Source: an uncultured Candidatus Saccharibacteria bacterium (GTDB taxonomy: Bacteria; Patescibacteriota; CPR2; UBA1875; CAZAFQ01). Taken from it: a stretch of DNA of 37,982 nucleotides. Under the pieces are notes generated by a model. That model made no database searches. It was not told the DNA's origin and saw only the letters and a list, made by a program, of their open reading frames with translations. The DNA lies in the NCBI GenBank assembly GCA_964484885.1, contig CAZAFQ010000001.1, positions 1 through 37,982 of the forward strand, written 5' to 3'. This document shows positions 1 through 32,372 of the stretch, piece by piece. Position 1 is the first letter of the stretch. Each line of letters begins with the position of its first letter. The translations under genes and the position numbers were made by a program.

Positions 1-13
1 ATCTTTATTCAAT

Positions 14-394
14 TTTATTATTTACAAATCTTGATAAGGAAAAAATGAAAATAGTATTGAGAGCATTTAATAATAAATTACAAGGAGTAATGGAAGTGCC
101 AGAAAACACCACTCCAAGATTCAAACTAGCTCTTGAGCAACCGATACAGATAGCTAATTTTGGTTTTACTAAGAAGGATAATTTTAATTTAATGAAATCG
201 CCAATTAAAACAATCTGTGTTTTTGAATGGACTGGTGGAACATTTGTTGAAGAAGGACACGAGTTTAATGGGGCAAGAGAATATCAATTAGTAGACATTG
301 AAAAACTATGAAAGGAAAAAATGAAAGTAATTAAAATATATAATCAACATAGGAGAGATTGCTATATTGATTTAGAGTGTGAGAGTTGTGGTAA
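14..394 (+). repeat. Copy A of a 381-bp direct repeat (partner 36376..36756)
   Basis: Hand alignment at offset 36362 is identical except pos 33 (g) vs 36395 (a). Identity ends after 394/36756. It is only about 8/13 in the 13 nt to the left. Confidence 0.9.
45..311 (+). CDS. hypothetical early protein, 88 aa (paralog copy A)
   Basis: ATG follows the RBS block AAGGAAAAAATGAAA. The same protein is encoded at 36407..36673. No family recognised. Confidence 0.7.
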   Translation: MKIVLRAFNNKLQGVMEVPENTTPRFKLALEQPIQIANFGFTKKDNFNLMKSPIKTICVFEWTGGTFVEEGHEFNGAREYQLVDIEKL

Positions 395-551
395 GAAGAT
401 TGTTTTTGGAGACGGCTACACCTCTCGAAGGATACACAATAAATATGGAACTGGATTTTCTGTCTGTATGGATTGCCATGAGAAGGAACGTGAGAAGGAA
501 AACGAAATATATAACCGTTATAAAAAGCAACGAGTAGAAAGGACTAAATGA
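321..551 (+). CDS. small zinc-ribbon-like protein, 76 aa
   Basis: Two Cys pairs (CESCG ... CMDCH). Uses the AAGGAAAAAATGAAA start block. The first ~24 codons are identical to the gene at 36683, then diverge. Confidence 0.65.
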   Translation: MKVIKIYNQHRRDCYIDLECESCGKKIVFGDGYTSRRIHNKYGTGFSVCMDCHEKEREKENEIYNRYKKQRVERTK

Positions 552-790
552 AAACCAAACCACCATTTTACGAAACTTCTGATATGGGTACAATCGCCAT
601 GTTAGAGATGTTTAAGTTTCCAATTAGAGAGATAAAAAGAGAAAAGGGCAAAAGTATAGCAGTCTTTGATAGAACAGATGAACTTGAGGAAGCGGTCAAC
701 AACTTTAATGTTGGACTTTTAGAGGGCAACCTGTTTGATTTTAATGACCAGCTGAAAAAAACTAAACACAGGTTATTGCATGCTATTTAA
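548..790 (+). CDS. hypothetical protein, 80 aa
   Basis: ATGA stop-start overlap with the upstream gene. Intact ORF. Confidence 0.6.
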   Translation: MKTKPPFYETSDMGTIAMLEMFKFPIREIKREKGKSIAVFDRTDELEEAVNNFNVGLLEGNLFDFNDQLKKTKHRLLHAI

Positions 791-799
791 TTTTGGTGC

Positions 800-828
800 T
801 TGACAGCGTTGTTTTTTTATAGTATACT
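800..828 (+). promoter_or_regulatory. sigma70-type early promoter (TTGACA-17 nt-TATACT)
   Basis: TTGACA at 800-805, 17-nt spacer, TATACT at 823-828. It lies in an intergenic gap. It shares gtGCTTGACA context with the promoters at 32373 and 34600. Confidence 0.65.
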
Positions 829-851
829 AGAGACAATCGTCAATTATTAAA

Positions 852-1007
852 ATGTATATGCAAAATGTATATGAAAAAGAACTCCAAACATTAGAGAGTT
901 TTTTTGAGCTTAGTCAGCCAGCTGAAACTCTAGACCAATTGATAGAGTACGCCATCGAGGCTTTAGAAGTCGAGCTGGTTTTATCAGGCGTAGAAATTAC
1001 TAATTAA
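852..1007 (+). CDS. small hypothetical ORF, 51 aa (below the ORF-track cutoff)
   Basis: Hand translation gives MYMQNVYEKELQTLESFFEL...VEITN*. It fills the gap between the promoter and the next gene. No SD. Confidence 0.35.
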   Translation: MYMQNVYEKELQTLESFFELSQPAETLDQLIEYAIEALEVELVLSGVEITN

Positions 1008-1022
1008 ATAAGGAGAATTAAA

Positions 1023-1268
1023 ATGACGTTTGACGAATTCGCCAAGGAGCTAACCAAAATACTTGATAAGGTGGCTGAGGAGGAAGAAAAAAAACTAGAG
1101 GCAGAGCAAGCAGAGGAAGAGCCAGAAACAAAAACACGCTATTTTAAAACCCTAAAAGAGGCGGTGAAAATGGCAAAAACAGTAACGCAAGACAGACATG
1201 ACGCCGTAGTTTTTGATACCGAAACGGGCGAAGAATTATTTTATTTTAATGTCGAAGATATTATTTAA
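1023..1268 (+). CDS. acidic hypothetical protein, 81 aa
   Basis: Strong SD (AAGGAG) 6-7 nt upstream of the ATG. Confidence 0.7.
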   Translation: MTFDEFAKELTKILDKVAEEEEKKLEAEQAEEEPETKTRYFKTLKEAVKMAKTVTQDRHDAVVFDTETGEELFYFNVEDII

Positions 1269-1289
1269 TTAGAATAAGGAGGGCAAAAA

Positions 1290-1601
1290 ATGCCAAAATA
1301 TCTACTAATCACAAAAAAACACAACTCGGCGCCAATTTCAGAAAGTACAGCTGATTTATTGGCTTACTATAGAGAGTTGGATTATTCTGTAAGGGAGGCA
1401 GAGAGTGCGGACGATCTTAATCCTTGTTTTTTTCGAAACAGTGGTGTGGTGCGATGTGCCTCTGATTTTCTAGCCTTAGAGGTAACAGATAAAAACAGTT
1501 TAGGGGAGGCACTCGAGGAGGCGCTCTCAGACCTGCCAACCACAAAAGAAACAGAGCAGTTTTATAGCGAAAAATTAGAGGAGCTAAAAACTCAACTATA
1601 A
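1290..1601 (+). CDS. hypothetical protein, 103 aa
   Basis: SD AAGGAGGG upstream of the ATG. Confidence 0.7.
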   Translation: MPKYLLITKKHNSAPISESTADLLAYYRELDYSVREAESADDLNPCFFRNSGVVRCASDFLALEVTDKNSLGEALEEALSDLPTTKETEQFYSEKLEELKTQL

Positions 1602-1706
1602 ATTATGGCGGACTAGGTGAAAGCTTAGCCCGTAATAAATTCTAAACCGAAACAGGAGAGTAATTGTTTTATTTTAGTTTTAATCAAAAAGACTAAATGA
1701 GCCACT

Positions 1707-2174
1707 ATGAGTTACTCAAAGAAAAAACAACTAAAAAAAAACAAGCGTGAGGCAAAAGTCTGCTCTAAGTGCAAAAGAAGGCGGTTGATTAAATTCTTTG
1801 AAAAAGAAACATCTCGGGTTTGCGACGAATGCAAGAGACGAAGTAAAAGACTAAAAAAACAATCCTCTAAAGGCTATATTGAAAAAAAACTCGACACTAA
1901 ATGGAGTGAGCAGGTAAAAATAAAAGCCGGCTATAAGTGCGAGATTTGCGGAACAAGAGAAAACCTCAACTCTCACCATATTTTTTCACGAAGTAATAAA
2001 GCGGTTCGACACGATGTAGAGAACGGTTGTTGTTTATGTGCAAAGCACCATCTTTTCGATTTAAAACTTTCAGCTCATAAAGCGCCAGTGGAGTTTTTGG
2101 AAATAATTAGAGAAAAACGGGGAGAGAAGTGGTATAATAAGCTAAGACAAAAAGCAAAAATACTTTCAACATGA
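1707..2174 (+). CDS. HNH-type / NinG(Rap)-like nuclease with N-terminal Cys-rich basic region
   Basis: N-terminal CSKCK...CDECK pairs. CEICG...NSHHIF...ENGCCLCAKHH resembles the HNH/NinG metal-binding core. Confidence 0.6.
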   Translation: MSYSKKKQLKKNKREAKVCSKCKRRRLIKFFEKETSRVCDECKRRSKRLKKQSSKGYIEKKLDTKWSEQVKIKAGYKCEICGTRENLNSHHIFSRSNKAVRHDVENGCCLCAKHHLFDLKLSAHKAPVEFLEIIREKRGEKWYNKLRQKAKILST

Positions 2175-3415
2175 ACAGACTAGACGATTTTTTTGAGGAA
2201 ACTTGGCAATTTTACAGAAAGCCTCTAAATAATTACACGAAAACAATCGTCCGAAGGTATGATGACTACCTAGTTAGAAAAAAAATAGTTAGAGAAGAGA
2301 TTGCAAAAGAAACTAAGAAGATCGGGCTAAACAAACAAATAATACTACCGACATATCCGCCTTTGCCAAAAGAAAATCCAGTTTTTACAAAACCAAAAAG
2401 AATAGCATTCATCCACGAAGATGTCGGTCATATTACTGGAGGTAGATATTATACATATTTTATTATTTCTGCACTATTAGAGCTAGGGCATGAGGTTACT
2501 GTTTATTCGAATAAAAAAGCTGTGTTCTCACATGAGTTTGATGGTTATAAAAAACCAAACTTCAAGATAGTGACTCAAAACGCTTCTCAGCTTGCTATGA
2601 TTAAAATTCCGGAGGCTGATGTTTTTATGGGATCGCCAATTCATGGTGCAATGAGCGCAATAAAAAATGCACAAAAATACAACAAACCCTGCTTTGTTTT
2701 AATCTTTGACCCATTCCCCATGATGAACAAATTTATCGGCAAGAGAAAATATATTGGGTGGCAACACTTAGTAAAAGATTTAAGAGAAAGCGATACCGAT
2801 GTTATTTCTCTTTGCAATGAAACCAGTAAATATATTTATGATTGGTTGAAAAAAACACAAGACAAAGTTCATCCACTGTATCCATGTATAAACTCAGCAG
2901 AGCTCAGTAAAGTAAAAGAGCAAAAAAGAGAGAAATATGCTCTTTTTATATCGAGGCTGACGAGTCATAAAAGATTCCAGGATGTAGTTATTGCGTGCAA
3001 GCGAGCAAACATTAAGTTAAAGGTCATCTCGTCTATAAATGGGATTAACGCTCAAGAGGTAGTAAAAAAACAAAATGCTAATTCTTTAGTAGAGTTTCAT
3101 CTTAGGGTAAATGACAAAAAGAAATTTGAGATGATAAAACAGGCGAGTGTTGTAATCAACGGTTCTATTTTTGAGGGATTTGGTATTTATGTTGCTGAAG
3201 CTATTGCTTGCGGAACTCCATTTGTGGGGTACGACTATATAACATTTCGAGAAATAAGAGATTATGCTGGCGCAAAAAATATTTATCTAGCAAAACCAAA
3301 AAACATTGATAATTTAACGAGTAAATTAAAACTTGCAATTAAAGAGGAAAACTTTCAAAAGCCAAGCAATATGTTTGATTTTGAGAGAATGGTAGAAAGG
3401 CTAAGCGGAATATGA
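2171..3415 (+). CDS. GT-B fold glycosyltransferase (GT4/Glycos_transf_1-like)
   Basis: C-terminal signature SIFEGFGIYVAEAIACGTPFVG (E-x7-E type GT1/GT4 motif). ATGA coupling to the upstream gene. Confidence 0.8.
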   Translation: MNRLDDFFEETWQFYRKPLNNYTKTIVRRYDDYLVRKKIVREEIAKETKKIGLNKQIILPTYPPLPKENPVFTKPKRIAFIHEDVGHITGGRYYTYFIISALLELGHEVTVYSNKKAVFSHEFDGYKKPNFKIVTQNASQLAMIKIPEADVFMGSPIHGAMSAIKNAQKYNKPCFVLIFDPFPMMNKFIGKRKYIGWQHLVKDLRESDTDVISLCNETSKYIYDWLKKTQDKVHPLYPCINSAELSKVKEQKREKYALFISRLTSHKRFQDVVIACKRANIKLKVISSINGINAQEVVKKQNANSLVEFHLRVNDKKKFEMIKQASVVINGSIFEGFGIYVAEAIACGTPFVGYDYITFREIRDYAGAKNIYLAKPKNIDNLTSKLKLAIKEENFQKPSNMFDFERMVERLSGI

Positions 3416-4053
3416 TTACTGCAATATTTGCTATTAAAAACAGAGATAGGCAGAGAGCAGAGAACTGTATTGATAGTTTAATGGGACAAGATACTAAAAT
3501 TATTGTAGTTGACTATGGAAGCGATGACCTATCTTGGTATGGTGAGGTGTTTAGGTGTGGTTGGATTAGCGTAAAAAGAGATACTGAAGACTGGAATAAA
3601 AGTAGAGCCTATAATATTGGGTTAAGGTTGGTTACGACTCCTTATGTGGTTTTTAGCGACATAGACAATATTTTTGCAGACAATTTTATAGACAGAGTAA
3701 AAGAGGAAGTTGTAAAAGAAAAGTCAGCAGTTTTATGTCAATGCGAAGATTTAGATAAACAAGGGAATGTCTATCGGTTGCATCCTAAGACTGGTTATGG
3801 AGCTTGCTTTGGAATTGACACCAATTGGGTAACATCAGTTGGAGGATATGACGAAACCTATACTTATTGGGGAAATGAGGACACTGACATTGCAAAGAGA
3901 GCAAGCCAATCAGGATATAATTTAGTTTGGCTTGAGCCTCTTATTAAGCACCAACATCATGAAAATGCACCCAGACCAACTCTAGATGAAAACAGGCGGT
4001 ATTTTGAAAAGAAAAAACCAATAATTAGAAATCAACCATGGGGAGAGATATGA
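3412..4053 (+). CDS. GT-A fold glycosyltransferase (GT2-like, Glyco_transf_7C-like C-terminus)
   Basis: IVVDYGSDD nucleotide-binding region, FSDIDN (DxD), and WGNEDTDIAKR resembling the WGxEDDD motif. ATGA coupling. Confidence 0.75.
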   Translation: MITAIFAIKNRDRQRAENCIDSLMGQDTKIIVVDYGSDDLSWYGEVFRCGWISVKRDTEDWNKSRAYNIGLRLVTTPYVVFSDIDNIFADNFIDRVKEEVVKEKSAVLCQCEDLDKQGNVYRLHPKTGYGACFGIDTNWVTSVGGYDETYTYWGNEDTDIAKRASQSGYNLVWLEPLIKHQHHENAPRPTLDENRRYFEKKKPIIRNQPWGEI

Positions 4054-4685
4054 CCGATATTTACATACCCATTCTAAGAACAAATAGAATTGATGAAATT
4101 AAAAAAAACATTTCTCAAACAACTTATTCGCCCTATAAAGTATATTTTATAGTTGAAAAGCCTGATTTTGAGCGACTGAAGGGGTCAACCAGAGATGAAA
4201 TTTTGTTAAATACCTCATCTATGAGCTATCCTGGCGCAATTAACTCGGCTTTCAATCAAACAAATGGTGATTATTTTTTTTGTGGCGCTGATGATTTGAA
4301 GTTTTATCCTAATTGGCTAGAGATTGCTTTGAAATATATTAACGACTATGGCGTTGTGGGAACAAATGATAAATTAAATATACATGTAAAGGCACAAAAA
4401 CACGCAACACACTGCCTCGTAAATAGAAATTACATAAATAAATATAGAGGGACTATTGATGGTTCTTACCCAGTGTTGTTTGAGTACAAACATAATTATT
4501 GCGACACTGAGTTTATCCAAACTGCTATTAAGCGCAATGAATTTAAGCCTTGTCTGGAATCTGTTGTGAGACATGAACATTGGTCTAAAGGTAGAAATAT
4601 GAAAGATGAAATTTATGAAAAATCAGAAAAAACAAAACATATAGACCAGCAAACTTTTAACTCAAGGAGTTATTTATGGCAATAA
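4050..4685 (+). CDS. putative GT-A-like glycosyltransferase
   Basis: FFCGADDLKF DxD-like motif in an alpha/beta-looking N-terminal half. ATG 4050 has a GGAG 4 nt upstream and ATGA coupling. An in-frame ATG at 4038 is the ORF-track start. Confidence 0.5.
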   Translation: MTDIYIPILRTNRIDEIKKNISQTTYSPYKVYFIVEKPDFERLKGSTRDEILLNTSSMSYPGAINSAFNQTNGDYFFCGADDLKFYPNWLEIALKYINDYGVVGTNDKLNIHVKAQKHATHCLVNRNYINKYRGTIDGSYPVLFEYKHNYCDTEFIQTAIKRNEFKPCLESVVRHEHWSKGRNMKDEIYEKSEKTKHIDQQTFNSRSYLWQ

Positions 4686-5560
4686 TAGTGACAGGTCATC
4701 GAGGATTTATTGGTAGAAATATCCTCAAAAGGCTTCAATCAATGAGATATAAAGTCATCACTATTAATGATGATTTAAGATACTGCAAATTGCCAAAGGC
4801 AGACGGGGTAATACATCTAGCATCAAACATGGGAGGGGTGGGGTTTTTTACAACTGAACAGTTTTATCCAATATTAGATAATGTCATAATGGACTCTCGT
4901 ATAATAGAACATTGTCGAAAACACAAGATGAGGCTTTTTTACCCATCGTCAGCTTGCGCTTATCCAGTTTCTACTATGAACACAGGAATTAAATTGGCTG
5001 AGGATTTACTAGAAGAGCCTTTTGAGCCAGACCAAATGTATGGATTAGAAAAATTGTTTATAACTAAACTGGCAGAGCATGCCGATTTTGATTTCAGGGT
5101 TGGAGTTTTGCATACAGTTTATGGAAAGGGTCAAGAATATGAGAGCTGTAAAGCAAAATTCCTCCCGCAGATTTGCTATAAATTTGCTACTCAAAATGAG
5201 ATTGAAGTATGGGGAGATGGAGAGCAAACGAGAACATTTTTACACATTTCTGATGCGGTTGAAATGATTTTAGAAGTGTTTTTTAGCAATAATTATTTTG
5301 GAGCGGTTAATATTTCATCTAGTTTAGAAATAAAAATTAAAGAAGTTATAAATATTTTATCTGAGCTATCAGGCAAAACAAATATTAAGTATAATAAAAC
5401 AAAACCAACTGGACCAAAAAGAAGGGCAGTTGACATGAATAAGTTTAATCGCCACTATAAAACTAGACCTATAATAAACTTCAAAGAGGGACTAAGCGAG
5501 GTTTTTAATTATGTCAAAAGTAACAGCCATACTGCTAGCCTATTACCCAGAAAGAGTTAA
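4676..5560 (+). CDS. extended-SDR NAD-dependent nucleotide-sugar epimerase/dehydratase (GDP-mannose 3,5-epimerase-like)
   Basis: VTGHRGFIGRN Rossmann motif, SSACAYP, YGLEKL (YxxxK), and VWGDGEQTRTFLHISD. SD AAGGAG lies upstream. Confidence 0.8.
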   Translation: MAIIVTGHRGFIGRNILKRLQSMRYKVITINDDLRYCKLPKADGVIHLASNMGGVGFFTTEQFYPILDNVIMDSRIIEHCRKHKMRLFYPSSACAYPVSTMNTGIKLAEDLLEEPFEPDQMYGLEKLFITKLAEHADFDFRVGVLHTVYGKGQEYESCKAKFLPQICYKFATQNEIEVWGDGEQTRTFLHISDAVEMILEVFFSNNYFGAVNISSSLEIKIKEVINILSELSGKTNIKYNKTKPTGPKRRAVDMNKFNRHYKTRPIINFKEGLSEVFNYVKSNSHTASLLPRKS

Positions 5561-6188
5561 AAATATATCATTTATTATTAACGCATTAAAAAATGGAACA
5601 AGACCACCAGATGAGATTGTTGTTTTATGCAATAGACCCGACTTAAATATTGATGGCGTTTTGGTGCGTTCAGACATTAATCTAGGAAATAGAGCCAGAT
5701 ATCCGTTTGCCTTAACTATTCCTTCTGATTATTACTTTTTTATTGATGATGACGTTGCACCCAGGGATATGACAATTGATAATTTTCTAAGTTATAATTT
5801 TGATGGAGTTTTAGGTCATTGTGGAAAAATAACACCAGGTGGCAATTACTCAACGCCCTTAATATGGGCAGATAGAATAAAAGAGGAGAAAGATGTTGAC
5901 TTGCTAATAGGAATTGGCAGTATGTTTGCTTCTTTTAATGCAATCGTTAATATGCTTATTTTAGAAACCACAATAAGAAACACAAAACAATACAACAACG
6001 GCAGAGAAGGTGATATTATTTTATCTATGGCTAATAATTGCAAGGTAGTTACTGCCGACAGTCAATCTATGACTTACAATTTAGATGATGGGAAAGTAGG
6101 AATGTACCTAGAGGATAATCACGTTAAAATGCGAAAAGACACTACTAAATCAATTTATGACGCTAGGCATCGCACTGATTTCGTTTAA
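5511..6188 (+). CDS. putative GT-A fold glycosyltransferase (GT2-like)
   Basis: N-terminal VTAILLAYYPER..., FFIDDDV (DxD). Overlaps the upstream gene. Confidence 0.55.
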   Translation: MSKVTAILLAYYPERVKNISFIINALKNGTRPPDEIVVLCNRPDLNIDGVLVRSDINLGNRARYPFALTIPSDYYFFIDDDVAPRDMTIDNFLSYNFDGVLGHCGKITPGGNYSTPLIWADRIKEEKDVDLLIGIGSMFASFNAIVNMLILETTIRNTKQYNNGREGDIILSMANNCKVVTADSQSMTYNLDDGKVGMYLEDNHVKMRKDTTKSIYDARHRTDFV

Positions 6189-7020
6189 TCGAGGTCAATA
6201 CTTCAAGCAAACAATCAAATCTCTTGAAAATCAAGTTAAAGCGGGAGAGGTTGATTATCATTTATTTCAAGATGGGGCAGTTAATAAATTTTCACATGCC
6301 TTAAAATCAAGACCAGAGTTAATCAGTCAGTCTATTAGAATATTTGATAGAGCAAATCTGAAGCGTAAAATAAAACACATAAGCGAGATGAATATAGGGA
6401 ATGCTTTAAATCAGTTTAGAGCAATAGAGTTCATGAGCCAGTACTATGACTATTTTTTAATTATTGAAGACGATGTTGTTTTATCTAAGTATTATCTAAG
6501 ACTCATCAGAGTTATGATTGAACAATTTTTAAGCGAAAATGATGTTTTTAGCGTTGCACTAAATTTTAAGAGAATGTGCGAGAAAAGCAAGATAAAAGAA
6601 AATTTAGACAAAGCAGGCTACAATTTAAAATTCCCAGGGGCTAATTCATTGCATTGGTGGGCTGAATGTTTTAGTAGCGAGAAATGGCAGAGGGCTAAGC
6701 CTTATTTTCTTGATTATATTAAATTAGTTGAGAATTGCGACTATCAGAGGCGACCGGCTCAAAAAATTAAAGAGTTATTTTATCGAAGCGGTATGTTTAT
6801 TGCGCAAACTTCGCAAGACGCAGGAAAAGACTATGCAATTAAAATGGCAGGCATGAAGCGAGTAAACACAATTGTTAATCGAGGGTTCTATATTGGACAG
6901 ATAGGCTTGCATTTTAATCCCGCTTTATACAACAAAATGGAATATGCTAGTCAGAAACCTTTTGAGTTTAAGAGCGACCTTTTATTAAATTCTTTCAATA
7001 TTTGCGATAAAAACAATTAA
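6157..7020 (+). CDS. putative GT-A fold glycosyltransferase
   Basis: GIALISFNRGQYF N-terminus typical of GT-A. LIIEDDVVLSKYY resembles the EDD motif of GT13-like enzymes. Confidence 0.55.
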   Translation: MTLGIALISFNRGQYFKQTIKSLENQVKAGEVDYHLFQDGAVNKFSHALKSRPELISQSIRIFDRANLKRKIKHISEMNIGNALNQFRAIEFMSQYYDYFLIIEDDVVLSKYYLRLIRVMIEQFLSENDVFSVALNFKRMCEKSKIKENLDKAGYNLKFPGANSLHWWAECFSSEKWQRAKPYFLDYIKLVENCDYQRRPAQKIKELFYRSGMFIAQTSQDAGKDYAIKMAGMKRVNTIVNRGFYIGQIGLHFNPALYNKMEYASQKPFEFKSDLLLNSFNICDKNN

Positions 7021-7120
7021 TTTAATAATTAATGCAATTTGTGCGGGAATAAACCCCTCCCCTACCCCACCACAAAAATATGGTTTTTTGACATTTTACT
7101 TGAGGTAATAGTGGGACATA

Positions 7121-7149
7121 TAGAAAAGTGGGGGATAGGTTGTTATAAT
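7121..7149 (+). promoter_or_regulatory. extended -10 promoter (TGtTATAAT) with weak -35 (TAGAAA)
   Basis: TG at 7141-7142 and TATAAT at 7144-7149. It lies in the 315-bp intergenic gap upstream of the methylase/packaging genes. Confidence 0.5.
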
Positions 7150-7178
7150 AAATTATATACAATAATTATTCAAGAATA

Positions 7179-7334
7179 ATGACGAAACAATTCATTAGAA
7201 AGAATATCAAGCAAGACAGGATTACCACTAGAGGAATGAAGTGGCGATTAATAAAGGATGGCAAGCACTACATTGCTTATGGAAACAAAAAAGATGTAGT
7301 AGATTTTATTTTTAATCTAATAAACAAAAATTAA
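7179..7334 (+). CDS. small hypothetical ORF, 51 aa
   Basis: Hand translation gives MTKQFIRKNIKQDRITTRGMKWRLIKDGKHYIAYGNKKDVVDFIFNLINKN*. It ends 1 nt before the methylase ATG. Confidence 0.4.
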   Translation: MTKQFIRKNIKQDRITTRGMKWRLIKDGKHYIAYGNKKDVVDFIFNLINKN

Positions 7335-7335
7335 T

Positions 7336-8394
7336 ATGCTGGTTGATATTAAGAAAATTAAATTAAATCCAAACAATCCTAGGTCTATCACAAACGACAA
7401 GTTTAAATCACTTGTGAAATCATTGAGAGATTTCCCAGAAATGTTAGAAAAACGACCGATAGTGGTTGATGAAAACATGATGATACTTGGAGGTAATATG
7501 AGACTGAAAGCGTGCCTAGAAGCAGGAATTACTAAAGTTCCAATCTCTATTGCAAAAGATTGGAGTGAAAAGAAAAAGAAGGAGTTTATTATTAAAGATA
7601 ATCTTGCTTACGGTGAGTGGGATTGGGATATTTTAGCAAACGAATGGGAGCAAGAGGAGCTAGAGGACTGGGAAATGGACCTGCCAACTGATTGGAAGAC
7701 TGATGAGATAGAAGAAGATGATGCTCCGGAAGTTAGTGATGAGCCAGCCATATCTAAACTCGGAGAAATCTACAAGCTAGGCAGACATCGCCTAATGTGT
7801 GGGGATGCTACAAAGATTGAGGATGTTAATTTGCTTATGGGGGGAGGCAAGGCTGATATGGCATTTACTGATCCCCCGTATAACATGGACTATAAAGGGG
7901 CTGGTGGTCAAAAAAGAGAAGGGATTTTAAACGACAAAATGACATCTGATAGCTTTTATCAGTTTTTAAAGGATTTTCTTATTGCTATAAAGTCAAAAGT
8001 TTTTGGAGGAGTATATGTTTGTATGGGAGCTAAAGAGATTGGAACTTTAAAGCTAGCCATGGAAGAAACAGGAGTCCACTGGCAGGACATAATTGTCTGG
8101 GTTAAAAATAAATTTGTGCTAGGTGGGACTGATTATCAAAGACAAACAGAGTATATAATTCTTGGAAATAATGGAGAGGAATTTTTGGACAATACAGAAG
8201 AAGCGGAATTAATTGGTTATGGTTGGACAAAACATAATTGGTACGGAGGAAGAAAGAATGCTAATGTGTGGAGGTTTGACAGAGAATTGAAAAATGACTT
8301 ACATCCGACGATGAAACCAGTCAAATTGTGTGGAACAGCAATTGTTAATAGTTCTACGAGGGGGGGGGTCTGTCTTAGATGTTTTTGGCGGTAG
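7336..8394 (+). CDS. ParB-like nuclease domain fused to DNA methyltransferase (N6A/N4C beta class), N-terminal 5/6, out of frame after the G9 tract
   Basis: The ParB/Srx-like N-terminus has KIKLNPNNPR and GGNMRLKA. Motif IV is FTDPPYN. HPTMKPVKL lies just before the frameshift. Confidence 0.8.
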   Translation: MLVDIKKIKLNPNNPRSITNDKFKSLVKSLRDFPEMLEKRPIVVDENMMILGGNMRLKACLEAGITKVPISIAKDWSEKKKKEFIIKDNLAYGEWDWDILANEWEQEELEDWEMDLPTDWKTDEIEEDDAPEVSDEPAISKLGEIYKLGRHRLMCGDATKIEDVNLLMGGGKADMAFTDPPYNMDYKGAGGQKREGILNDKMTSDSFYQFLKDFLIAIKSKVFGGVYVCMGAKEIGTLKLAMEETGVHWQDIIVWVKNKFVLGGTDYQRQTEYIILGNNGEEFLDNTEEAELIGYGWTKHNWYGGRKNANVWRFDRELKNDLHPTMKPVKLCGTAIVNSSTRGGVCLRCFWR

Positions 8395-8545
8395 TGGCAC
8401 AACACTGATCGCAAGTGAACAATTAGATCGTAAGTGTTATATGATGGAACTAGATCCTAAATACTGTGATGTCATTAGAAAAAGATACTGGAAGTTTACA
8501 ACTGGAAGTATTAATGGATGGTCAAAAGGAACACCAATAATATAA
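8330..8545 (+). CDS. C-terminal segment of the same methyltransferase (motif I), +1 frame
   Basis: Encodes GGGSVLDVFGGSGTTLIA (AdoMet motif I FxGxG). It is continuous with 7336..8368 if the G run were 8 nt. Confidence 0.75.
   Translation: MEQQLLIVLRGGGSVLDVFGGSGTTLIASEQLDRKCYMMELDPKYCDVIRKRYWKFTTGSINGWSKGTPII
8360..8368 (+). repeat. G9 homopolymer inside the methyltransferase gene
   Basis: Direct count in acgagGGGGGGGGGtctg. It is the point where the reading frame changes by +1. Confidence 0.95.
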
Positions 8546-8557
8546 AATTTTACAACT

Positions 8558-8926
8558 ATGGACAACAAAATACTAAAAAAAGCATTTATAGATGCTTATA
8601 AAAAAACTTTTGGCAATATTAGCCAGTCATGCAAGAGGATAAAAATAAGTAGGCAAACTTATTACAACTGGATGGAAAAAGATGAAGAGTTTAAAAAACA
8701 ACTAGACGGGGTAGAGCCGGAAGAAGTTTTTATTGACTTTGCAGAAAATGCCTTAGTCAAGAGAATACAAGAAGGCGACACGACCGCAATTATATTTACT
8801 CTTAAGACTAAAGGCAAAAAAAGAGGATATATTGAAAGGCAAGAAATTGAGCACAAGGGAGAGATAGACACGGGTTCAAAAGAGGTAGCAAAAGCCCTTC
8901 GTGAAATAATAGAAAGCGATGAGTAA
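8558..8926 (+). CDS. terS: terminase small subunit-like HTH protein
   Basis: HTH ISRQTYYNWMEKDEEF and the later AIIFTLKTKGKKRGY resemble phage terS families. It sits immediately upstream of terL and overlaps it. Confidence 0.6.
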   Translation: MDNKILKKAFIDAYKKTFGNISQSCKRIKISRQTYYNWMEKDEEFKKQLDGVEPEEVFIDFAENALVKRIQEGDTTAIIFTLKTKGKKRGYIERQEIEHKGEIDTGSKEVAKALREIIESDE

Positions 8927-10211
8927 AAGCATAAAAGCGATTAAAAAAATCGTTCACACTTATTTCAAAGACTCAAATAACGAACCATTCCCGATTACTG
9001 ACAGCCAGTGTAGACTATTTGCAGGGATAGTAGATAGGCGTAAAAAATGGTTATGGATATCCGCGCCCACCCGTTATGGCAAGAGCGAGACTTTAGCCCT
9101 TGCGATAATTTATTTAGCGGTATTTGAAAGATTAAAAATCCCCGTTGTTGCTGGCTCAAAAGACAAAGCAAAAAAAATAATGGATTATGTCGTGGCTCAT
9201 ATTGCAGACCACCCAGAGTTACACAATGGACTGATCAACGTTAAGGGGATTGATGACGTAGAGAAGCTAAAGATAACAATTTCTAAAAATGCTCTGCGAT
9301 GGTCTAATGGTGGTTGGATATTTGTTACCTCAATTGACTCAAGGTCAATAATTAGTGAAGGAGAGGGAGCAGTTGGCGAGGGAGGTGATGTAGTTATTTT
9401 AGAAGAGGCTGGCTTAATAAAAAGAGAAGAGCAGTTCTCGAAGGTGGTAAGAATGACAGAGCACAAATCTGGCTGGGGGAAGTTGGTAATGTCCGGCAAC
9501 TGTATAGAAAACAGTGTGTTTGAAAAAGCATATAAAAGTAGCCTCTATTTCAAGATAAGAATTAGTTTAGAAGAAGCAATTAGAGAAGGCAGGTTTACAA
9601 AGCAAGAGCTAGAGGATAAAAAACAACAAACAACAGCTAAGGATTGGAAGCGATATTATTTAGTTAAATTTCCAAAGGCTAGCGAGTTTGCTTATTTTAA
9701 ACCAAATAAGTATGAGGTGTTGCCCAGAGAGCTAGATTATTTTGGAGCTATTGACCCCTCTCTTGGCGAAACAAAAAAGTCAAGCAAAATTGGGATAGTA
9801 GTTTTAGCAAGGGACACTAAAGGTCAAGTTTTCGAGACAGAGAGCGTTGTCGACCATCTATCCCCAGATGAAGCAATAAGGAAAATATTTAATATGCCTT
9901 ATAAATTTAAGCGGTTTGTATTTGAGGCTGTTCAGTTTCAAAAGTACTTCTTAGAGATAACAGATGAAAAAAGCAAAGCTCAAGGACTATATATCCCATT
10001 TGAGGGGATTACTCAGGCAAAGAATAAAACAGAAAGAATAGAAAGCCTAGAGCCACATGTCAATAACAAACACATATTATTTAAGGGTGACAATCAGCTG
10101 TGGAAAGACTTGCAAGACTACCCAGAAACAGAGTTCTTAGATGGGCTTGACTCATTAGAGATGGCATGGAGAGCTATTGGGGAGGCTGATACAGAATTTT
10201 TCTTTGCTTAA
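8919..10211 (+). CDS. terL: terminase large subunit
   Basis: Walker A-like SAPTRYGKSE and Walker B-like VVILEEAG. The C-terminal nuclease-like region has GAIDPSLG. Position is canonical. Confidence 0.8.
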   Translation: MSKSIKAIKKIVHTYFKDSNNEPFPITDSQCRLFAGIVDRRKKWLWISAPTRYGKSETLALAIIYLAVFERLKIPVVAGSKDKAKKIMDYVVAHIADHPELHNGLINVKGIDDVEKLKITISKNALRWSNGGWIFVTSIDSRSIISEGEGAVGEGGDVVILEEAGLIKREEQFSKVVRMTEHKSGWGKLVMSGNCIENSVFEKAYKSSLYFKIRISLEEAIREGRFTKQELEDKKQQTTAKDWKRYYLVKFPKASEFAYFKPNKYEVLPRELDYFGAIDPSLGETKKSSKIGIVVLARDTKGQVFETESVVDHLSPDEAIRKIFNMPYKFKRFVFEAVQFQKYFLEITDEKSKAQGLYIPFEGITQAKNKTERIESLEPHVNNKHILFKGDNQLWKDLQDYPETEFLDGLDSLEMAWRAIGEADTEFFFA

Positions 10212-10224
10212 CAACCACTTATTG

Positions 10225-10233
10225 TGATATATT
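10225..10233 (+). promoter_or_regulatory. extended -10 element TGaTATATT
   Basis: Intergenic, between terL and portal. Same TGATATA core as 15889 and 25438. Confidence 0.4.
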
Positions 10234-10285
10234 ATAGTGGACACACAAACTATTGAGAGTCAGCGAGCCCCATAAAGTAAAAAAT

Positions 10286-12523
10286 ATGAACATATTTCAA
10301 AAAGGCTTACAAATAATTAAAAAAGACTTTCTAGGTTTAGGTCACTCTGTTACTTCTTTTGGGTGGCAAATTCCAGGCAGATGGAACAAAAGACAACAAC
10401 TCGAGCAATACAATAGATACGTTTACACAATAGTGTCTGCTTTTGCTATTGATTTTGCGAAAAATGGCTACAAGCTAAAGAGGGGGGAATCAGAGGTTGG
10501 CAGTCATGAGCTACTTAACGTTTTAAATTCCCCCAATTCAGAGCAGTCAGGGTTTCAGTTTAGAGAGTTGCATGCCACCTACATGAAGCTAGCAGGTGAG
10601 TCATTTTGGTACTTAGTTAGGGGAAGTCTTAGTAAAAAAGCAAAAGAGATATATTTGCTTAGACCCGATTTAGTAGATATCGAGCTAAACGATGACAGTA
10701 TTGGGTCGATAAAAAAATATATACTTCACTTGCCAAGCGGAAAAAAAGAGGATTTTAGCCCAGAGGAAATTATTCATTTCAAGTATCCGAATCCTATAAA
10801 TCCAAAACGAGGCATGGGAGTAGTAGAAGCCTCAATGACTTACCTTCAGACCGAAGAGTATTCTAGCCAATGGACAAAAAACTCAATTTATAACTCTGGT
10901 CGTCCATCTGGAATTATAAACCTACAGGGGAAGATGGATGACAATCAATTCAATCAATTAAAAGAAAATTTCAAACAAGAGTATACAGGCACAGTAAATG
11001 CTGGCAAAACCCTACTATTAAAAGGATTTGATGGTATAGACTGGGCGAAGTTGGGAATGGATTTAGAGGGCATTGATTTAAAGAGCGTTAAAGATTTAAC
11101 TAGAGAGGACATTATGTTTATGTTTAGGACCTCAAATACCATTATGGGAATTACTGATGATGTGAATCGAGCTAATTCTAGAGAAATGAGAGGAGTGTGG
11201 ATGGACAATGTGGTAAAGCCTGAGCTAGATAGATTTGTTGATCAAATAAATCACTCATTGGCTAAGATTTACGGAAATGATCTAACACTAGAATATGAAG
11301 ACCCTAATCCTGAAACAATTAAAGATAGGGTCGAGGAATGGGATAAAGGAGTAGACAGGTGGCTAAGTAAGAACGACATCATTAGAGAGAGAAATCAAAT
11401 ATTGGGAACTGATATTCCAGAGAAAAAAGGAGGGGATGAGATTTGGCAACCACTGTCACTCGTACCCATGGAGTTAAGAAAAGAGGATAAGTCTCAAGAG
11501 AAACAAGTCAAAACAGAAAAGAACCTAAAAAAGGAAAGGAAAGTAGAAAAAGAAGTTAGTCTAGAAGTCAAGCCAACAAAGAAAGAGCGTGGAGAGATAA
11601 TGAGAAAGAATATTTTTAGAGAACAAGAAAGATGGGAGCAACCATTCCAAGAACAAGTCAACAAAGTATTTGAGTATCAAAAAAAGCAAATTCTGGATAA
11701 AGTAAAATCAATAGACAAAAACTTTGAAGATTGGTTATTTGACCGATTAGAGTCAATATTATTATGGAAAGAGTTAATTTTGCCAATTGCAACAGAAATC
11801 ATAAAAAGTCAATCTAAGTATATGTTTGATTTTGTTGATGACGATAGCGTTGCAGGAGAGTTAGAGATAACCCCTTCAATAAAAAACTCAATCGAACAAA
11901 GAGTGGAAAGGTGGTCGTCAGATGTTGACGCCGACACTAGAGAATTATTGAATGACACAATCAATCAAGGAGTAAGAGCCGGAGAATCTGTTTCTAAGTT
12001 GAGGTCTCGAATAGAGTCCGTGTATGATCAAGCAACTAAAACGAGAAGCACTAGAATTGCTAGAACAGAAACGATATTCTTATCTAACATGGCTCAACTT
12101 GAAGCTATGCAGTTTTTACCAAGCGTCGTTGGCAAACAATGGATGACTAATCCAGATGCCTGCGAGTTTTGTAAACCGCTTGAGGGGGTAATAATGGGTT
12201 TGGGAACTAATTTTGTAAATCAAGGGGAGTCAGTTGAGGGCTCTGATGGCGGTATTATGGTTGCTGACTACGAGGACGTATTACACCCACCCTTACATCC
12301 GAATTGCAGATGTACTATCCTTCCGGTAAACCGAGAGGAAATGAAGGACGTCAGGATTAATAAACTAGAGCAAATGTTAAATGAGTATAACGATATGGAT
12401 AAAAGAACCAAAGAAGCTAGAGGGATGTTAGAGAAAATGCAAAAAGAAAAAGAGGATCTAGCAGAGGACAAAAAAGAGTTAAATGAAACATTGAAAAAAA
12501 TAGAGGAGCTAGTAAATGAGTAG
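10286..12523 (+). CDS. portal protein fused to a MuF/SPP1 gp7-like minor head protein domain
   Basis: The N-terminal ~400 aa look portal-like. A K/E-rich linker follows. The C-terminal part has RIARTETIF...CEFCKPLEG...HPNCRCTILP (Phage_Mu_F signature). The ORF-track start at 10253 is a TTG, and the first ATG is 10286. Confidence 0.85.
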   Translation: MNIFQKGLQIIKKDFLGLGHSVTSFGWQIPGRWNKRQQLEQYNRYVYTIVSAFAIDFAKNGYKLKRGESEVGSHELLNVLNSPNSEQSGFQFRELHATYMKLAGESFWYLVRGSLSKKAKEIYLLRPDLVDIELNDDSIGSIKKYILHLPSGKKEDFSPEEIIHFKYPNPINPKRGMGVVEASMTYLQTEEYSSQWTKNSIYNSGRPSGIINLQGKMDDNQFNQLKENFKQEYTGTVNAGKTLLLKGFDGIDWAKLGMDLEGIDLKSVKDLTREDIMFMFRTSNTIMGITDDVNRANSREMRGVWMDNVVKPELDRFVDQINHSLAKIYGNDLTLEYEDPNPETIKDRVEEWDKGVDRWLSKNDIIRERNQILGTDIPEKKGGDEIWQPLSLVPMELRKEDKSQEKQVKTEKNLKKERKVEKEVSLEVKPTKKERGEIMRKNIFREQERWEQPFQEQVNKVFEYQKKQILDKVKSIDKNFEDWLFDRLESILLWKELILPIATEIIKSQSKYMFDFVDDDSVAGELEITPSIKNSIEQRVERWSSDVDADTRELLNDTINQGVRAGESVSKLRSRIESVYDQATKTRSTRIARTETIFLSNMAQLEAMQFLPSVVGKQWMTNPDACEFCKPLEGVIMGLGTNFVNQGESVEGSDGGIMVADYEDVLHPPLHPNCRCTILPVNREEMKDVRINKLEQMLNEYNDMDKRTKEARGMLEKMQKEKEDLAEDKKELNETLKKIEELVNE

Positions 12524-13259
12524 AGTTAAAAACATTACAAACTCTTTAGAATTAAAACGTATCCAATTAAGCAATGAAAAGGAAGTTAGAAATTTAATTG
12601 GAGAGGTTAAACTACAAAATGATTTATTAGGAGAGGTTATCCAATCACTAGATAAAGTTAAGGAATCGATTGACTCACAAGATTATCCACAGCCACACAA
12701 GACGGTAAAGATTAGTAATCTTAAAGATGTAAAAATCCCAGAGCTAAAATCAGTTCAGATAGAAAAACCCACTTGGTTAAAGTTAAAACAATTTTCTCTT
12801 TCTGAGCTGATTAGCTCTATTGGTGATTTGTTTAGCAATTTGCTCAGCAGGGAGTTTAGGGTTGATTTAGAACAATATCGAGTAGCCAGAAATGCCATAT
12901 CTGTTCGATTGTCAAACGGGAAAGAGTTTTTAGAGTCATTAAATACGGGCATCGCAACTGGTATGTCTAGTATTGAGTTTCCTAGTTGGATTTCTAAAGA
13001 GGAAGCCCAAAAATCGATAAATTCCAAGCTAGACACATATAGTCTTAACGATGTAAGAGATAATTCTATTAACAGCAATATTACATATTTAGGGAAGGAT
13101 GATAAGCAAGGCAATTGGCTAATAATAGAGATAAACGAGCTAGAAGGAGTAAGTATGAGATTTGCAACAGTTAAAAACAATCCCTTAATAAATACATATC
13201 AAGAAGCAATGCTAAACAGAGAGTCATTAACTTATGATATTTACTCAAAAGCTTTCTAA
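12516..13259 (+). CDS. hypothetical head-module protein, 247 aa
   Basis: SD GAGGAG 7 nt upstream. Overlaps the portal stop. No family recognised. Confidence 0.6.
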   Translation: MSRVKNITNSLELKRIQLSNEKEVRNLIGEVKLQNDLLGEVIQSLDKVKESIDSQDYPQPHKTVKISNLKDVKIPELKSVQIEKPTWLKLKQFSLSELISSIGDLFSNLLSREFRVDLEQYRVARNAISVRLSNGKEFLESLNTGIATGMSSIEFPSWISKEEAQKSINSKLDTYSLNDVRDNSINSNITYLGKDDKQGNWLIIEINELEGVSMRFATVKNNPLINTYQEAMLNRESLTYDIYSKAF

Positions 13260-13261
13260 AT

Positions 13262-13447
13262 ATGGTAGACGTTCGATGCAAATATTGTGGTAGATTGCAG
13301 ATGAGGCTCGACTTTGGAATCGGCGAGATTAAGTGTGGTAGGTGTGGCAAAATAGTTAAGTTTAAGGTTACTACTCAGAGTTTAGATAGGTTTGTTGAGA
13401 GGTTAAAACTAAGAGACCAGAAAATTAGACTTGACAAGCAAGACTGA
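13262..13447 (+). CDS. Com-like zinc-finger protein, 61 aa
   Basis: VRCKYCGRL...GEIKCGRCGKIV matches the spacing of the Mu Com zinc finger (zf-Com) as I recall it. Confidence 0.6.
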   Translation: MVDVRCKYCGRLQMRLDFGIGEIKCGRCGKIVKFKVTTQSLDRFVERLKLRDQKIRLDKQD

Positions 13448-13533
13448 AAATGCAAGAATTATAGTAGAAGTCCTAGAGATTCCCTATATAAGAGGTCATA
13501 GAACCCGACAAACTAATAAAAGAGACCTTTGAG

Positions 13534-13556
13534 TCCGCCTTAGTGGCGGATTTTTT
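13534..13556 (+). terminator. rho-independent terminator
   Basis: TCCGCC-ttagt-GGCGGA followed by TTTTTT. Confidence 0.7.
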
Positions 13557-13576
13557 GTGTCCGAAAGGAAACACTT

Positions 13577-14050
13577 ATGTCATTTGAGCACTTTAATATA
13601 GGTGCGGGAGAGCTATCTGTGAATAGTATTGACGTTGGGCATACGACAGAAGAAGGCATTGTTGTAATGCTTGAGCCAAATGTTCACCTACATCGTTCCG
13701 GTAAATGGGGCATGACACCAGTTAAGGCTTCAATCATCGGATATGAAGTTACAGTCCAAATCACAATGGCTGAAACTACTTTAGCAAACCTGAAAAAAGC
13801 TATCGCTGGCTCAACAACTGGCGGTAACAATGTGCAGATCGGTGGATTAGCTGGCAGAGAAGTAAATGGCAGTGAGATTACTCTTACGCCTTTTGATGGA
13901 ACTCACAGCTGGACATTCAGAAATGCAGTCCCGACTTCACCAGTCGAAGTTCTTTATCAAGTTGAAAACGAAAGAGTTTATCAGGTGACCTTTACTGCAC
14001 TAGTAGATGAGGACTCACCCGATGAATCTAACGTTGTATTTGTAAGTTAA
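13577..14050 (+). CDS. virion structural protein, 157 aa (possible displaced tail tube or decoration protein)
   Basis: SD AAAGGAAA. TAATG coupling to the capsid gene. Beta-rich sequence. The function is inference only. Confidence 0.65.
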   Translation: MSFEHFNIGAGELSVNSIDVGHTTEEGIVVMLEPNVHLHRSGKWGMTPVKASIIGYEVTVQITMAETTLANLKKAIAGSTTGGNNVQIGGLAGREVNGSEITLTPFDGTHSWTFRNAVPTSPVEVLYQVENERVYQVTFTALVDEDSPDESNVVFVS

Positions 14051-15834: not shown

Positions 15835-15858
15835 AAAGCTAATGTCAATTGAACAGTT

Positions 15859-15887
15859 GCCCCACTCTTTAGTGGGGCTTTTGTTTT
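15859..15887 (+). terminator. rho-independent terminator after the capsid gene
   Basis: 8-bp stem GCCCCACT/AGTGGGGC, loop cttt, then TTTTgTTTT. Confidence 0.8.
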
Positions 15888-15888
15888 G

Positions 15889-15897
15889 TGATATACT
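15889..15897 (+). promoter_or_regulatory. extended -10 promoter TGaTATACT
   Basis: Lies immediately after the terminator. An identical 9-mer occurs at 25438. Confidence 0.5.
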
Positions 15898-15967
15898 TAA
15901 TATATGCTAAAAATAAAAGACATTATTCACCAGGCAATTATAAAGCCATTCATAACAAAGGACGAAG

Positions 15968-17613: not shown

Positions 17614-17614
17614 T

Positions 17615-17947: not shown

Positions 17948-17949
17948 CT

Positions 17950-18225: not shown

Positions 18226-18258
18226 AGACCCCAGCGTGAGTCCAAATAAAGGAGCACA

Positions 18259-31403: not shown

Positions 31404-31432
31404 CTTTAACCATATTAAATCCTGGTGAGGAT

Positions 31433-31465
31433 ACAGGCTAGGGGTTGTCCTCTAGCCTGTTTTTA
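31433..31465 (+). terminator. rho-independent terminator (1 of 3 in tandem)
   Basis: ACAGGCTAG/CTAGCCTGT stem extendable to ~13 bp, then TTTT. Confidence 0.7.
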
Positions 31466-31547: not shown

Positions 31548-31553
31548 AGATTA

Positions 31554-32365: not shown

Positions 32366-32372
32366 TTCGTGC

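Follow-up and report, generated by a model that had tools for sequence, protein, structure and literature searches.

The 37,982-bp contig CAZAFQ010000001.1, which at its full length is referred to here as the window, is a phage genome that carries a six-gene glycosylation island at positions 2171 to 7020. The functional class of this island is secure: it is phage-encoded glycan biosynthesis built from phage-restricted glycosyltransferase (GT) families, with five GTs and a nucleotide-sugar enzyme of the extended short-chain dehydrogenase/reductase (SDR) type. The island is a core, constrained module of an uncultivated ~38-kb siphophage lineage, under purifying selection, and not a recent acquisition. 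By analogy with other glycan-encoding viruses, we tentatively favor the phage's own virion proteins as the acceptor, which would be glycosylated in the cytoplasm late in infection.

Architecture of the island

The island consists of six plus-strand genes (open reading frames [ORFs] 1 to 6; Table 1) that together occupy 12.8% of the genome. Successive genes overlap by 4, 16, 10, 50, and 32 nt, and ORF1 itself overlaps an upstream HNH gene by 4 nt (ATGA). The original prediction for this stretch had described six consecutive overlapping or ATGA-coupled genes, and all six were found at their predicted positions on the plus strand; the motifs quoted for them are all present, most being invariant in family alignments. 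It had also seen no obvious transmembrane (TM) segment, and none was detected in any of the six proteins by Kyte-Doolittle analysis. The sole peak above 1.6, at residue 132 of ORF5, lies within the confidently folded GT-A core of the AlphaFold2 (AF2) model. Its observation that the phage lacks Wzx/Wzy, GtrA/GtrB, and phosphoglycosyl-transferase-like genes held as well: the scanned window ORFs include no flippase, polymerase, Gtr, or phosphoglycosyl-transferase gene. The island is a translationally coupled six-gene operon of soluble cytoplasmic enzymes, namely, one retaining-type GT4, two GT2-type GT-A enzymes, one KfiA/EXTL2-like GT-A enzyme, one GnT-I-like GT-A enzyme, and one nucleotide-sugar SDR. 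A promoter and terminator scan of positions 1 to 9500 gave counts equal to shuffle expectation and was uninformative on the timing of transcription.

Table 1. Coordinates of the island genes and of other annotated features in the window
Feature	Position	Strand	Size	Description
ORF1	2171-3415	+	414 aa	GT4-type (GT-B fold) GT with an N-terminal extension of ~75 aa; conserved partner of ORF6
ORF2	3412-4053	+	213 aa	Small GT2-family GT-A GT; FSDIDN motif
ORF3	4038-4685	+	215 aa	GT2-like GT-A GT; GADD motif; variable middle of the island
ORF4	4676-5560	+	294 aa	Extended-SDR nucleotide-sugar epimerase/reductase; GxxGxxG, SSAC, YxxxK
ORF5	5511-6188	+	225 aa	GT-A fold GT; FIDDDV motif; family only on phage-like metagenomic contigs
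ORF6	6157-7020	+	287 aa	GT-A fold GT; IIEDDV motif, with a GnT-I-like EDD; phage-restricted family
ParB-DNA methyltransferase	7336-8545	+		ParB_N + N6/N4 DNA methyltransferase (Pfam ParB_N, N6_N4_Mtase; phrog_498, 7e-90); context, outside the glycan pathway
Portal-MuF	10253-12523		756 aa	Portal fused to a MuF-like head-morphogenesis domain
Protease-scaffold-MCP	14050-15834		594 aa	Prohead protease, acidic scaffold-like linker, and major capsid protein (MCP) in one ORF
Endolysin	26929-27984			N-terminal ~200 aa match phage endolysin/amidase families; the long C-terminal half has only SMC-like coiled-coil matches

Identities of the enzymes

ORF1 matched the Pfam families Glycos_transf_1 (PF00534; 3e-19, 69.6 bits versus a cutoff of 26.4) and Glyco_trans_1_4 (1e-11). 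It combines a GT-B C-terminal domain profile with an E-x7-E motif, the features by which CAZy GT4 is recognized, and E335-x7-E343 is invariant across 9 aligned family members. Profile searches returned BshA (1.3e-8) along with GtfA/Gtf1 and MshA, in each case over the C domain only. The best NCBIfam matches, all with weak scores, were the cytoplasmic protein O-glycosyltransferases SdgA and GtfA, and also Agl16. The ORF1 family is discrete, with 47 members on contigs of at most 41 kb, beyond which the bit score falls from 286 to 81. GT4-GT2 fusion proteins were considered as a clue to the island partner of ORF1 and rejected, the fused GT2 belonging to another family.

ORF2 matched Glycos_transf_2 (6e-13, 49.4 bits), Glyco_transf_7C (2e-9), and PHROG glycosyltransferase families. 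ORF3 on its own was marginal on Glycos_transf_2 (24.8 bits versus a cutoff of 23.3), and PF00535 was matched by 42 of the 59 aligned members of its family. Both proteins thus score above the gathering threshold of Glycos_transf_2 and carry a DxD motif, as expected of CAZy GT2. The ORF3 profile matched PglI (2e-5) and also chondroitin synthase, DPMS, and TarP. In an exhaustive search the family comprised 829 representative clusters, with D85 and D86 conserved at ≥90% in the alignment. Fusions of ORF3-family proteins join them to an SDR in the related locus L005 and elsewhere to GT2 domains, an NDP-sugar C-methyltransferase, or TPR repeats.

ORF4 matched Pfam Epimerase (1.6e-34) and phrog_540 (4e-46). 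Because its NCBIfam matches are below threshold and GDP-L-fucose synthase comes first (full length; 96 bits versus a cutoff of 500), ahead of RmlB and heptose 6-epimerase, the "epimerase" of the original prediction is better read as a nucleotide-sugar epimerase/reductase.

Structure prediction was needed for ORF5 and ORF6 because sequence and profile searches were uninformative. Single-sequence PDB searches returned only noise for these two proteins and for ORF3. ORF5 had no Pfam, PHROG, or NCBIfam match, its family profile matched no PDB sequence, and ORF6 had no PHROG match and only a subthreshold Pfam match to MGAT4. In contrast to these searches, the AF2 model of ORF5 (pLDDT 91.5) matched KfiA best in a Foldseek search of the PDB (8.6e-9), followed by PmHS2 (heparosan synthase), SpsA, EXTL2, and TarP; R15, D79, D81, R165, and D168 are invariant, with 26 homologs collected. 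The ORF6 model (pLDDT 94.4) matched GnT-I (2.8e-10), POMGNT1, GnT-II, and TarP. Its E104 and D106, within the EDD motif, are invariant, with 60 homologs collected, and EDD is the form that the metal-binding motif takes in GnT-I. Each of the two models matched more than 500 GT-A structures at E ≤ 1e-3, and each protein carries an invariant acidic motif (DDD and EDD, respectively); identity to the PDB matches is 9 to 16%, and both are assigned here to the GT-A fold only, not to a specific CAZy family (GT45/GT64 or GT13/GT16). A BFVD fold search with ORF6 gave generic viral GT-A matches only, and in GTDB genomes ORF6 homologs occur only on phage-like contigs, apart from GTs of 20 to 23% identity in Bacteroidota. 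Profiles and structure models together identify all five predicted GTs and the sugar enzyme, and none of the five turned out to be anything other than a GT.

Conservation of the island among close relatives

Low GC had led the original prediction to hint at a horizontally acquired cassette. The island is lower in GC (34.1% versus 37.3% for the rest of the genome; 2nd percentile among 4850-bp windows), but the contrast first given was overstated: the deficit is ~3 points, both window ends are as AT-rich as the island, and GC at third codon positions of the island overlaps that of other genes. Conservation likewise speaks against a cassette. Among relatives found by TerL in IMG/VR and GTDB, all close ones with visible sequence upstream of TerL (L002, L003, L005, L012, L013, and L023) carry the island, which leaves none for the synteny comparison with island-free phages that had been suggested. 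All six genes occur in the same order in L013, at 56 to 78% amino acid identity. L005 has ORF1, ORF2, a fused ORF3-family GT and SDR, ORF5, and ORF6, and the ORF2 orthologs are 68% (L005) and 74% (L013) identical. L012 shows ORF3 to ORF6, L002 shows ORF4 to ORF6, and L003 and L023 are limited to the 3' part of ORF6 at the edge of the contig or locus. Throughout the lineage the island lies just upstream of terS, TerL, and the portal gene. Between the window and L013, pN/pS was 0.21 to 0.38 for island genes, close to the values of 0.18 to 0.24 for TerL, portal, and MCP.

Distribution of the island families in other phages

The ORF1 subfamily, ORF5, and ORF6 are each discrete families found almost only on phage-like contigs. 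In tblastn searches of 50,697 GenBank phage records with ORF1, ORF2, ORF3, ORF5, and ORF6, the only match was a marginal one between ORF1 and a Staphylococcus phage. The GT4 and ORF6 pair occurs in at least 9 loci spread over two phage lineages that differ in their portals. The second lineage (L010, L011, L019, and L022; 37 to 41 kb) has portals only ~23% identical to that of the window and a layout in which recombination genes are followed by GT4, ORF6, a variable gene set, a ParB-linked gene, terS, TerL, and portal. The variable set contains an ORF5 homolog, a different SDR (22% identity to ORF4 and not orthologous to it), and sugar methyltransferases, the methyltransferases of these sister islands belonging to Methyltransf_24, _21, and _11. 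ORF3 and ORF4 form the variable middle of the island, and this variation suggests that glycan composition diversifies between lineages.

Homologs of ORF5 and ORF6 also sit in larger glycan clusters. In L006, a 108-kb phage, a cluster of more than 17 kb (3502 to 20846) directly after the portal and ClpP genes encodes a GT4-GT2-methyltransferase fusion (776 aa), a split transketolase, a cytidylyltransferase, and several methyltransferases. L020, a 39.6-kb SU10-like podophage, devotes roughly a third of its genome to a ~14.5-kb cluster (4668 to 19194) directly after the MCP gene, with a GT4-TPR protein, a cytidylyltransferase, a major facilitator superfamily (MFS) transporter, LicD, several GT2s, a methyltransferase, an SDR, and an ORF5 homolog. 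In two phages of 77 to 133 kb (L007 and L018), an ORF6 homolog lies beside methyltransferases and a weakly GT8-like protein, with no detectable ORF5 homolog. The glycosylation island had been judged unusually large for a ~37-kb phage, which does not hold: sister phages of 37 to 41 kb have equivalent modules, and the cluster of L020 is larger still.

Virion proteins as the proposed acceptor

The proposal that these enzymes could build a defined oligosaccharide on an acceptor accessible from the cytoplasm is supported as a possibility by five real GTs and a nucleotide-sugar SDR that are soluble, translationally coupled, and unaccompanied by export machinery. In the pathway we envisage, ORF4 would convert a host NDP-sugar to a dedicated donor, and the core pair of GT4 and ORF6, with ORF2, ORF3, and ORF5, would add up to five sugars in sequence to give a defined oligosaccharide. 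With the SDR swapped and sugar O-methyltransferases added in sister lineages, the glycan would differ by lineage. Its likely role would be to shield or stabilize the particle or to tune adsorption.

We lean toward virion proteins because the module is core and repeatedly placed in head/packaging modules and because virion glycosylation is the only validated use of multiple GTs (with methyltransferases) in lytic tailed phages besides DNA modification. The island adjoins or lies inside head/packaging modules in four phage types: the window lineage, the L010/L011/L019/L022 lineage, L006, and L020. Sister islands carry sets of GTs and sugar methyltransferases, a combination that actinobacteriophage workers take as a sign of virion glycosylation (PMC13313380, PMC12363180), and the fusion partners of the ORF3 family are glycan-assembly domains. 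The leading NCBIfam matches of ORF1, SdgA and GtfA, point the same way as cytoplasmic protein O-glycosyltransferases, albeit with weak scores.

Several observations weigh against this reading. No sequence feature marks any acceptor. In mycobacteriophages the glycans are found on the C termini of capsid and tail-tube subunits (PMC12619734), and neither in the window nor in related loci did the MCP or structural proteins have a Ser/Thr-rich C-terminal extension, although glycans could be placed at other sites. The Ser/Thr-rich tracts offered as possible acceptors in the original prediction are not supported: they are 13 to 15 residues long and are short linkers in the beta-helix tailspike-like and distal tail proteins, and relatives have no Ser/Thr-rich tails. 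No island GT is BLAST-detectably related to the GTs of Che8 or Corndog or to those in the GenBank phage records, a set in which the presence of Che8, Corndog, and Myrna is unconfirmed. Finally, the packaging-gene neighborhood is equally typical of DNA-modification modules, and the modeled similarity of ORF5 and ORF6 to TarP would suit an envelope polymer just as well.

A further view, which we regard as possible but hold with some doubt, is that this is a family-level clade of uncultivated ~38- to 40-kb siphophages with a core, vertically inherited virion-glycosylation pathway, in which a phage-restricted pair of GT4 and GnT-I-like enzymes is joined by lineage-specific donor and methylation enzymes.

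A 157-aa immunoglobulin (Ig)-domain protein encoded upstream of the MCP at 13577 to 14050 is conserved more strongly among relatives than any other protein (87 to 88% identity; pN/pS 0.10). It could serve in decoration or as a tube protein and is a candidate glycan acceptor.

DNA as a possible acceptor and the neighboring ParB-linked slot

The GTs could instead build a mono- to oligosaccharide on 5-hydroxymethylcytosine (5hmC), 5-hydroxymethyluracil (5hmU), or 5-hydroxycytosine (5hoC) before packaging, which would shield the genome from restriction and CRISPR nucleases. The original prediction cited T4 DNA glucosylation as an analogue but undervalued DNA as a target. Multi-GT clusters of GT-A and GT-B enzymes, with or without an epimerase, have been documented to place up to trisaccharides on 5hmC, and many of them have ParB-like genes, methyltransferases, and terminase nearby (Pyle et al., bioRxiv 10.1101/2023.12.21.572611). 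Recent work also gives 5hmU and 5hoC as bases that receive such sugars. The island has this neighborhood, with the ParB_N-N6_N4_Mtase gene, terS, and TerL directly downstream. BshA and MshA, the nearest solved relatives of ORF1, are also those reported for DNA GT-B enzymes (Pyle et al.). In L019 (39.5 kb), the island is directly followed, before terS, by a ParB-like protein, a Tet_JBP dioxygenase (80 bits), and a TAGT (53 bits) at 10842 to 13090, an arrangement that resembles published ParB-dependent 5mYOX systems (PMC13229309). The ORF3 family also aligns to the L019 TAGT (hhalign probability of 86%), although only over the N-terminal 86 residues, in the N-terminal half.

Other observations speak against DNA. 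The base hydroxylase that sugar attachment requires was absent from the window: Pfam searches of the scanned ORFs found no TET/JBP, ThyA/ThyX, or other base hydroxylase, every ORF of at least 200 aa was either assigned or located in the head/tail modules, and the TET and TAGT of L019 had no six-frame match. No island protein matched PF20691. TET and TAGT were found in just 1 of ~30 ORF6-family loci by six-frame search, and that locus, L019, brings its own TAGT. A specific kinship between ORF3 and TAGT was rejected, the resemblance being generic GT-A similarity no stronger than that of ORF3 to ordinary GT2s, and the fusion partners of the ORF3 family are of polysaccharide type. A 196-aa protein of L002 was considered as a TAGT and rejected for want of similarity. 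A TET or other dioxygenase hidden in the 742-aa ORF at 28933 to 31161 was likewise rejected; judged from its sequence, that ORF resembles a beta-helix tailspike or depolymerase, and it has no family matches.

The locus between ORF6 and terS is a hypervariable slot for ParB-linked DNA modifiers beside a constant island. The slot spans 7020 to 8558 in the window. It holds ParB and C5-MTase genes in L010, L011, and L022; ParB, TET, and TAGT in L019; and ParB with a PAPS reductase (PAPS reductase-DUF3440) in L002; it is empty in L005, L013, and L023. The constancy of the island beside a modifier slot of changing or absent content argues against DNA as the acceptor. In the window itself the methyltransferase is of N6/N4 type, not C5, and its gene is interrupted by a frameshift at a run of ~10 G residues (8362 to 8371), for which an assembly error, a pseudogene, and a slippage or phase-variable site are all possible explanations. 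We consider DNA an improbable acceptor.

Host envelope and other cytoplasmic molecules as possible acceptors

Soluble GTs could also modify, from the cytoplasmic side of the membrane, a lipid-linked or polymeric intermediate of the host (for example, a wall teichoic acid [WTA], S-layer, or capsule precursor or an O-antigen unit), which host machinery would then export. The altered surface could exclude superinfection or prevent the adsorption of progeny to debris. The absence of TM segments and flippase genes does not count against such a target, as envelope GTs, among them TarP-type enzymes and the majority of those for O-antigen or WTA, are mostly soluble or peripheral and use host export. 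The enzymes themselves give some encouragement: the ORF5 and ORF6 models match TarP, a prophage WTA GlcNAc-transferase (1e-6 to 1e-8), and the best match of the ORF3 profile is PglI, which acts on an undecaprenyl diphosphate (Und-PP)-linked glycan. The MFS transporter, LicD, and cytidylyltransferase of the L020 cluster resemble a teichoic-acid or phosphocholine decoration set, and published surveys interpret the nucleotide-sugar genes of Patescibacteria-linked phages as surface-modification genes (PMC12911398). The genetics of the island fit less well: conversion genes tend to be variable morons, but this module is a syntenic core component that evolves under purifying selection. No lysogen exists to benefit, integrase and repressor not having been found, and no priming phosphoglycosyl-transferase, Gtr-type gene, or flippase accompanies the GTs. 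Five GTs with a private sugar donor also far exceed any validated phage envelope-modification system that we know of. Overall, an envelope target appears unlikely, but it merits more weight than DNA.

The acceptor could, finally, be a nonvirion phage protein, a host protein, or a small molecule, whose glycosylation would redirect metabolism or inactivate a defense or host factor. The solved relatives of ORF1 include the small-molecule GT4s BshA, MshA, and tetrahydrobiopterin glucosyltransferase, and no acceptor signature of any kind was found. However, five GTs and a donor enzyme imply an oligosaccharide, which is atypical of small-molecule or effector glycosylation, and the location in head/packaging modules of several lineages suggests a late, particle-linked role. 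The chance that such a molecule is the target seems slim.

Comparison with known glycosylation systems

To our knowledge, phage glycosylation has been validated in few settings: the DNA of T-even and TET-linked phages, prophage serotype conversion and TarP, and the virion glycans of actinobacteriophages. The last of these is the closest parallel to the virion glycosylation favored here. For the mycobacteriophages Che8 (gp110), Corndog (gp38), and Myrna, summaries of Freeman et al. 2023 describe virion glycosylation as shown experimentally (PMC12363180, PMC12619734, PMC13313380). In that system, which spans lytic and temperate siphophages, phage-encoded soluble GTs, often with sugar methyltransferases as in the sister islands here, place O-linked glycans on virion proteins in the cytoplasm. 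The present island differs in having no BLAST-level homology to GenBank phage GTs, in packing five GTs and an SDR into a 38-kb genome, in lacking Ser/Thr-rich C-terminal tails, and, as far as can be discerned, in having a host outside the actinobacteria. A similar independence is seen in giant viruses, which glycosylate virion proteins in the cytoplasm without host secretory pathways. The capsid glycans of PBCV-1 and the fibril glycans of Mimivirus are made by a virus-encoded set of multiple GTs, nucleotide-sugar enzymes, and methyltransferases (the last present here in sister islands), but those viruses have eukaryotic hosts and genomes of >300 kb, and the similarity is at the level of the fold only (BFVD matches).

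DNA sugar-hypermodification clusters of phages combine a C5-MT and a 5mYOX/TET, or a ThyA homolog, with a GT-A (TAGT/JGT-like) or GT-B enzyme, with or without an epimerase (Pyle et al.; Lee et al. 2026, PMC13326640). The island shares with them GT-A, GT-B, and epimerase genes beside ParB-like, methyltransferase, and terminase genes, a possible oligosaccharide product, and, in L019, ParB, TET, and TAGT. It departs from them in that the base hydroxylase is missing from the window and almost every related locus and in its constancy beside a varying modifier slot. TarP (PDB 6h1j), the WTA beta-GlcNAc transferase of Staphylococcus aureus prophages, is likewise a soluble, cytoplasmic, phage-encoded GT-A enzyme without its own export and is among the top structural matches of ORF5 and ORF6; yet it is a single enzyme of a temperate prophage, in contrast to five GTs and an SDR without lysogeny genes, and identity to it is 11 to 16%. 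Gtr seroconversion (GtrA/GtrB/GtrV) has in common with the island that glycosylation is phage encoded. It relies, however, on a flippase, a bactoprenol GT, and a periplasmic GT, all of them membrane proteins of temperate phages, and none of these, no TM segments in island proteins, and no integrase or repressor were found in the window.

Thus, in a lineage of small, apparently virulent phages, a conserved pathway of five GTs takes up ~13% of the genome, and the ORF1 subfamily, ORF5, and ORF6 are families of phage-like metagenomic contigs without cultured phage representatives. If virion proteins are the target, particle glycosylation would extend to a new, environmentally widespread phage group, with a bearing on adsorption, stability, and immune or defense evasion, and particle glycosylation encoded by the phage itself would prove a widespread strategy far beyond the actinobacteriophages, achieved through GT families unrepresented in cultured phages. 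If DNA or the envelope is the target, the island would be the largest such phage system in so small a genome. A constant island beside a hypervariable ParB-linked slot offers a natural experiment to separate the two functions.

Genome context, lifestyle, and host

The phage genome takes up the whole contig, and nearly all of its genes are on the plus strand. In its 5' part, small early genes and the HNH gene are followed by the island, the ParB-DNA methyltransferase gene, terS, TerL, and portal-MuF. The middle part runs from the Ig-domain protein through the protease-scaffold-MCP fusion, head-tail connector (neck) genes, tape measure, Dit, and tail proteins to holin and endolysin. In the 3' part, a second HNH gene, the 742-aa beta-helix-like protein, and a ~1-kb noncoding gap precede the ERF and YqaJ recombination genes, after which further small early-type genes, including those for a 3D-domain protein and helix-turn-helix (HTH) proteins, extend to the contig end. 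A Com-like Zn-ribbon ORF at 13262 to 13447 is a further hint of a Mu-like head module. In the relative L005, both TerL (787 aa, 4972 to 7335) and portal (1084 aa, 7346 to 10600) contain large intein-like insertions with homing-endonuclease domains.

No integrase or repressor was detected among the scanned window ORFs. The phage is therefore probably virulent, and a moron for lysogenic conversion is unlikely. When 25 kb of the window was compared with GenBank phages by Megablast, no nucleotide relatives were found, and the closest cultured TerL matches are ~33% identical over part of the protein only. The contig was deposited within a "Patescibacteria group bacterium" metagenome-assembled genome, and the bins of close relatives conflict (Thermoplasmatales, Gammaproteobacteria, and "bacterium ADurb.Bin212"); bin labels were rejected as host evidence, those of near-identical phage types disagreeing. 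The "ADurb" name of the bin that contains L013 may hint at an anaerobic digester as the source environment. TGA serves as a stop codon in the window genome, so the genome does not use code 25. The encoded endolysin and 3D-domain protein indicate a bacterial host with peptidoglycan; neither tRNAs nor Rfam matches were found that could aid host assignment. The 742-aa ORF, which begins with GTG downstream of the lysis cassette and has no Pfam, PHROG, or NCBIfam match, has the look of a tailspike or depolymerase built on a parallel beta-helix, with a jelly-roll-like region at its C terminus, and may point to a polysaccharide receptor.

Two features of the 3' part were also observed. Between an 81-aa gene and the recombination genes, a stretch of ~1 kb (31400 to 32430) has no convincing ORF and no Rfam match but contains hairpins followed by T runs (e.g., 31433 to 31460 and 31564 to 31586); it is probably an operon boundary or an origin. 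A direct repeat of 300 nt with 98% identity lies near both contig ends (3 to 302 and 36365 to 36664) and involves genes at 45 to 551 and 36338 to 36910. An 88-aa gene is duplicated exactly, and the next gene, Zn-finger-like, diverges after ~25 residues. Because the second copy lies 1.3 kb short of the contig end, the repeat is a paralogous early-gene cassette and not a simple terminal overlap.

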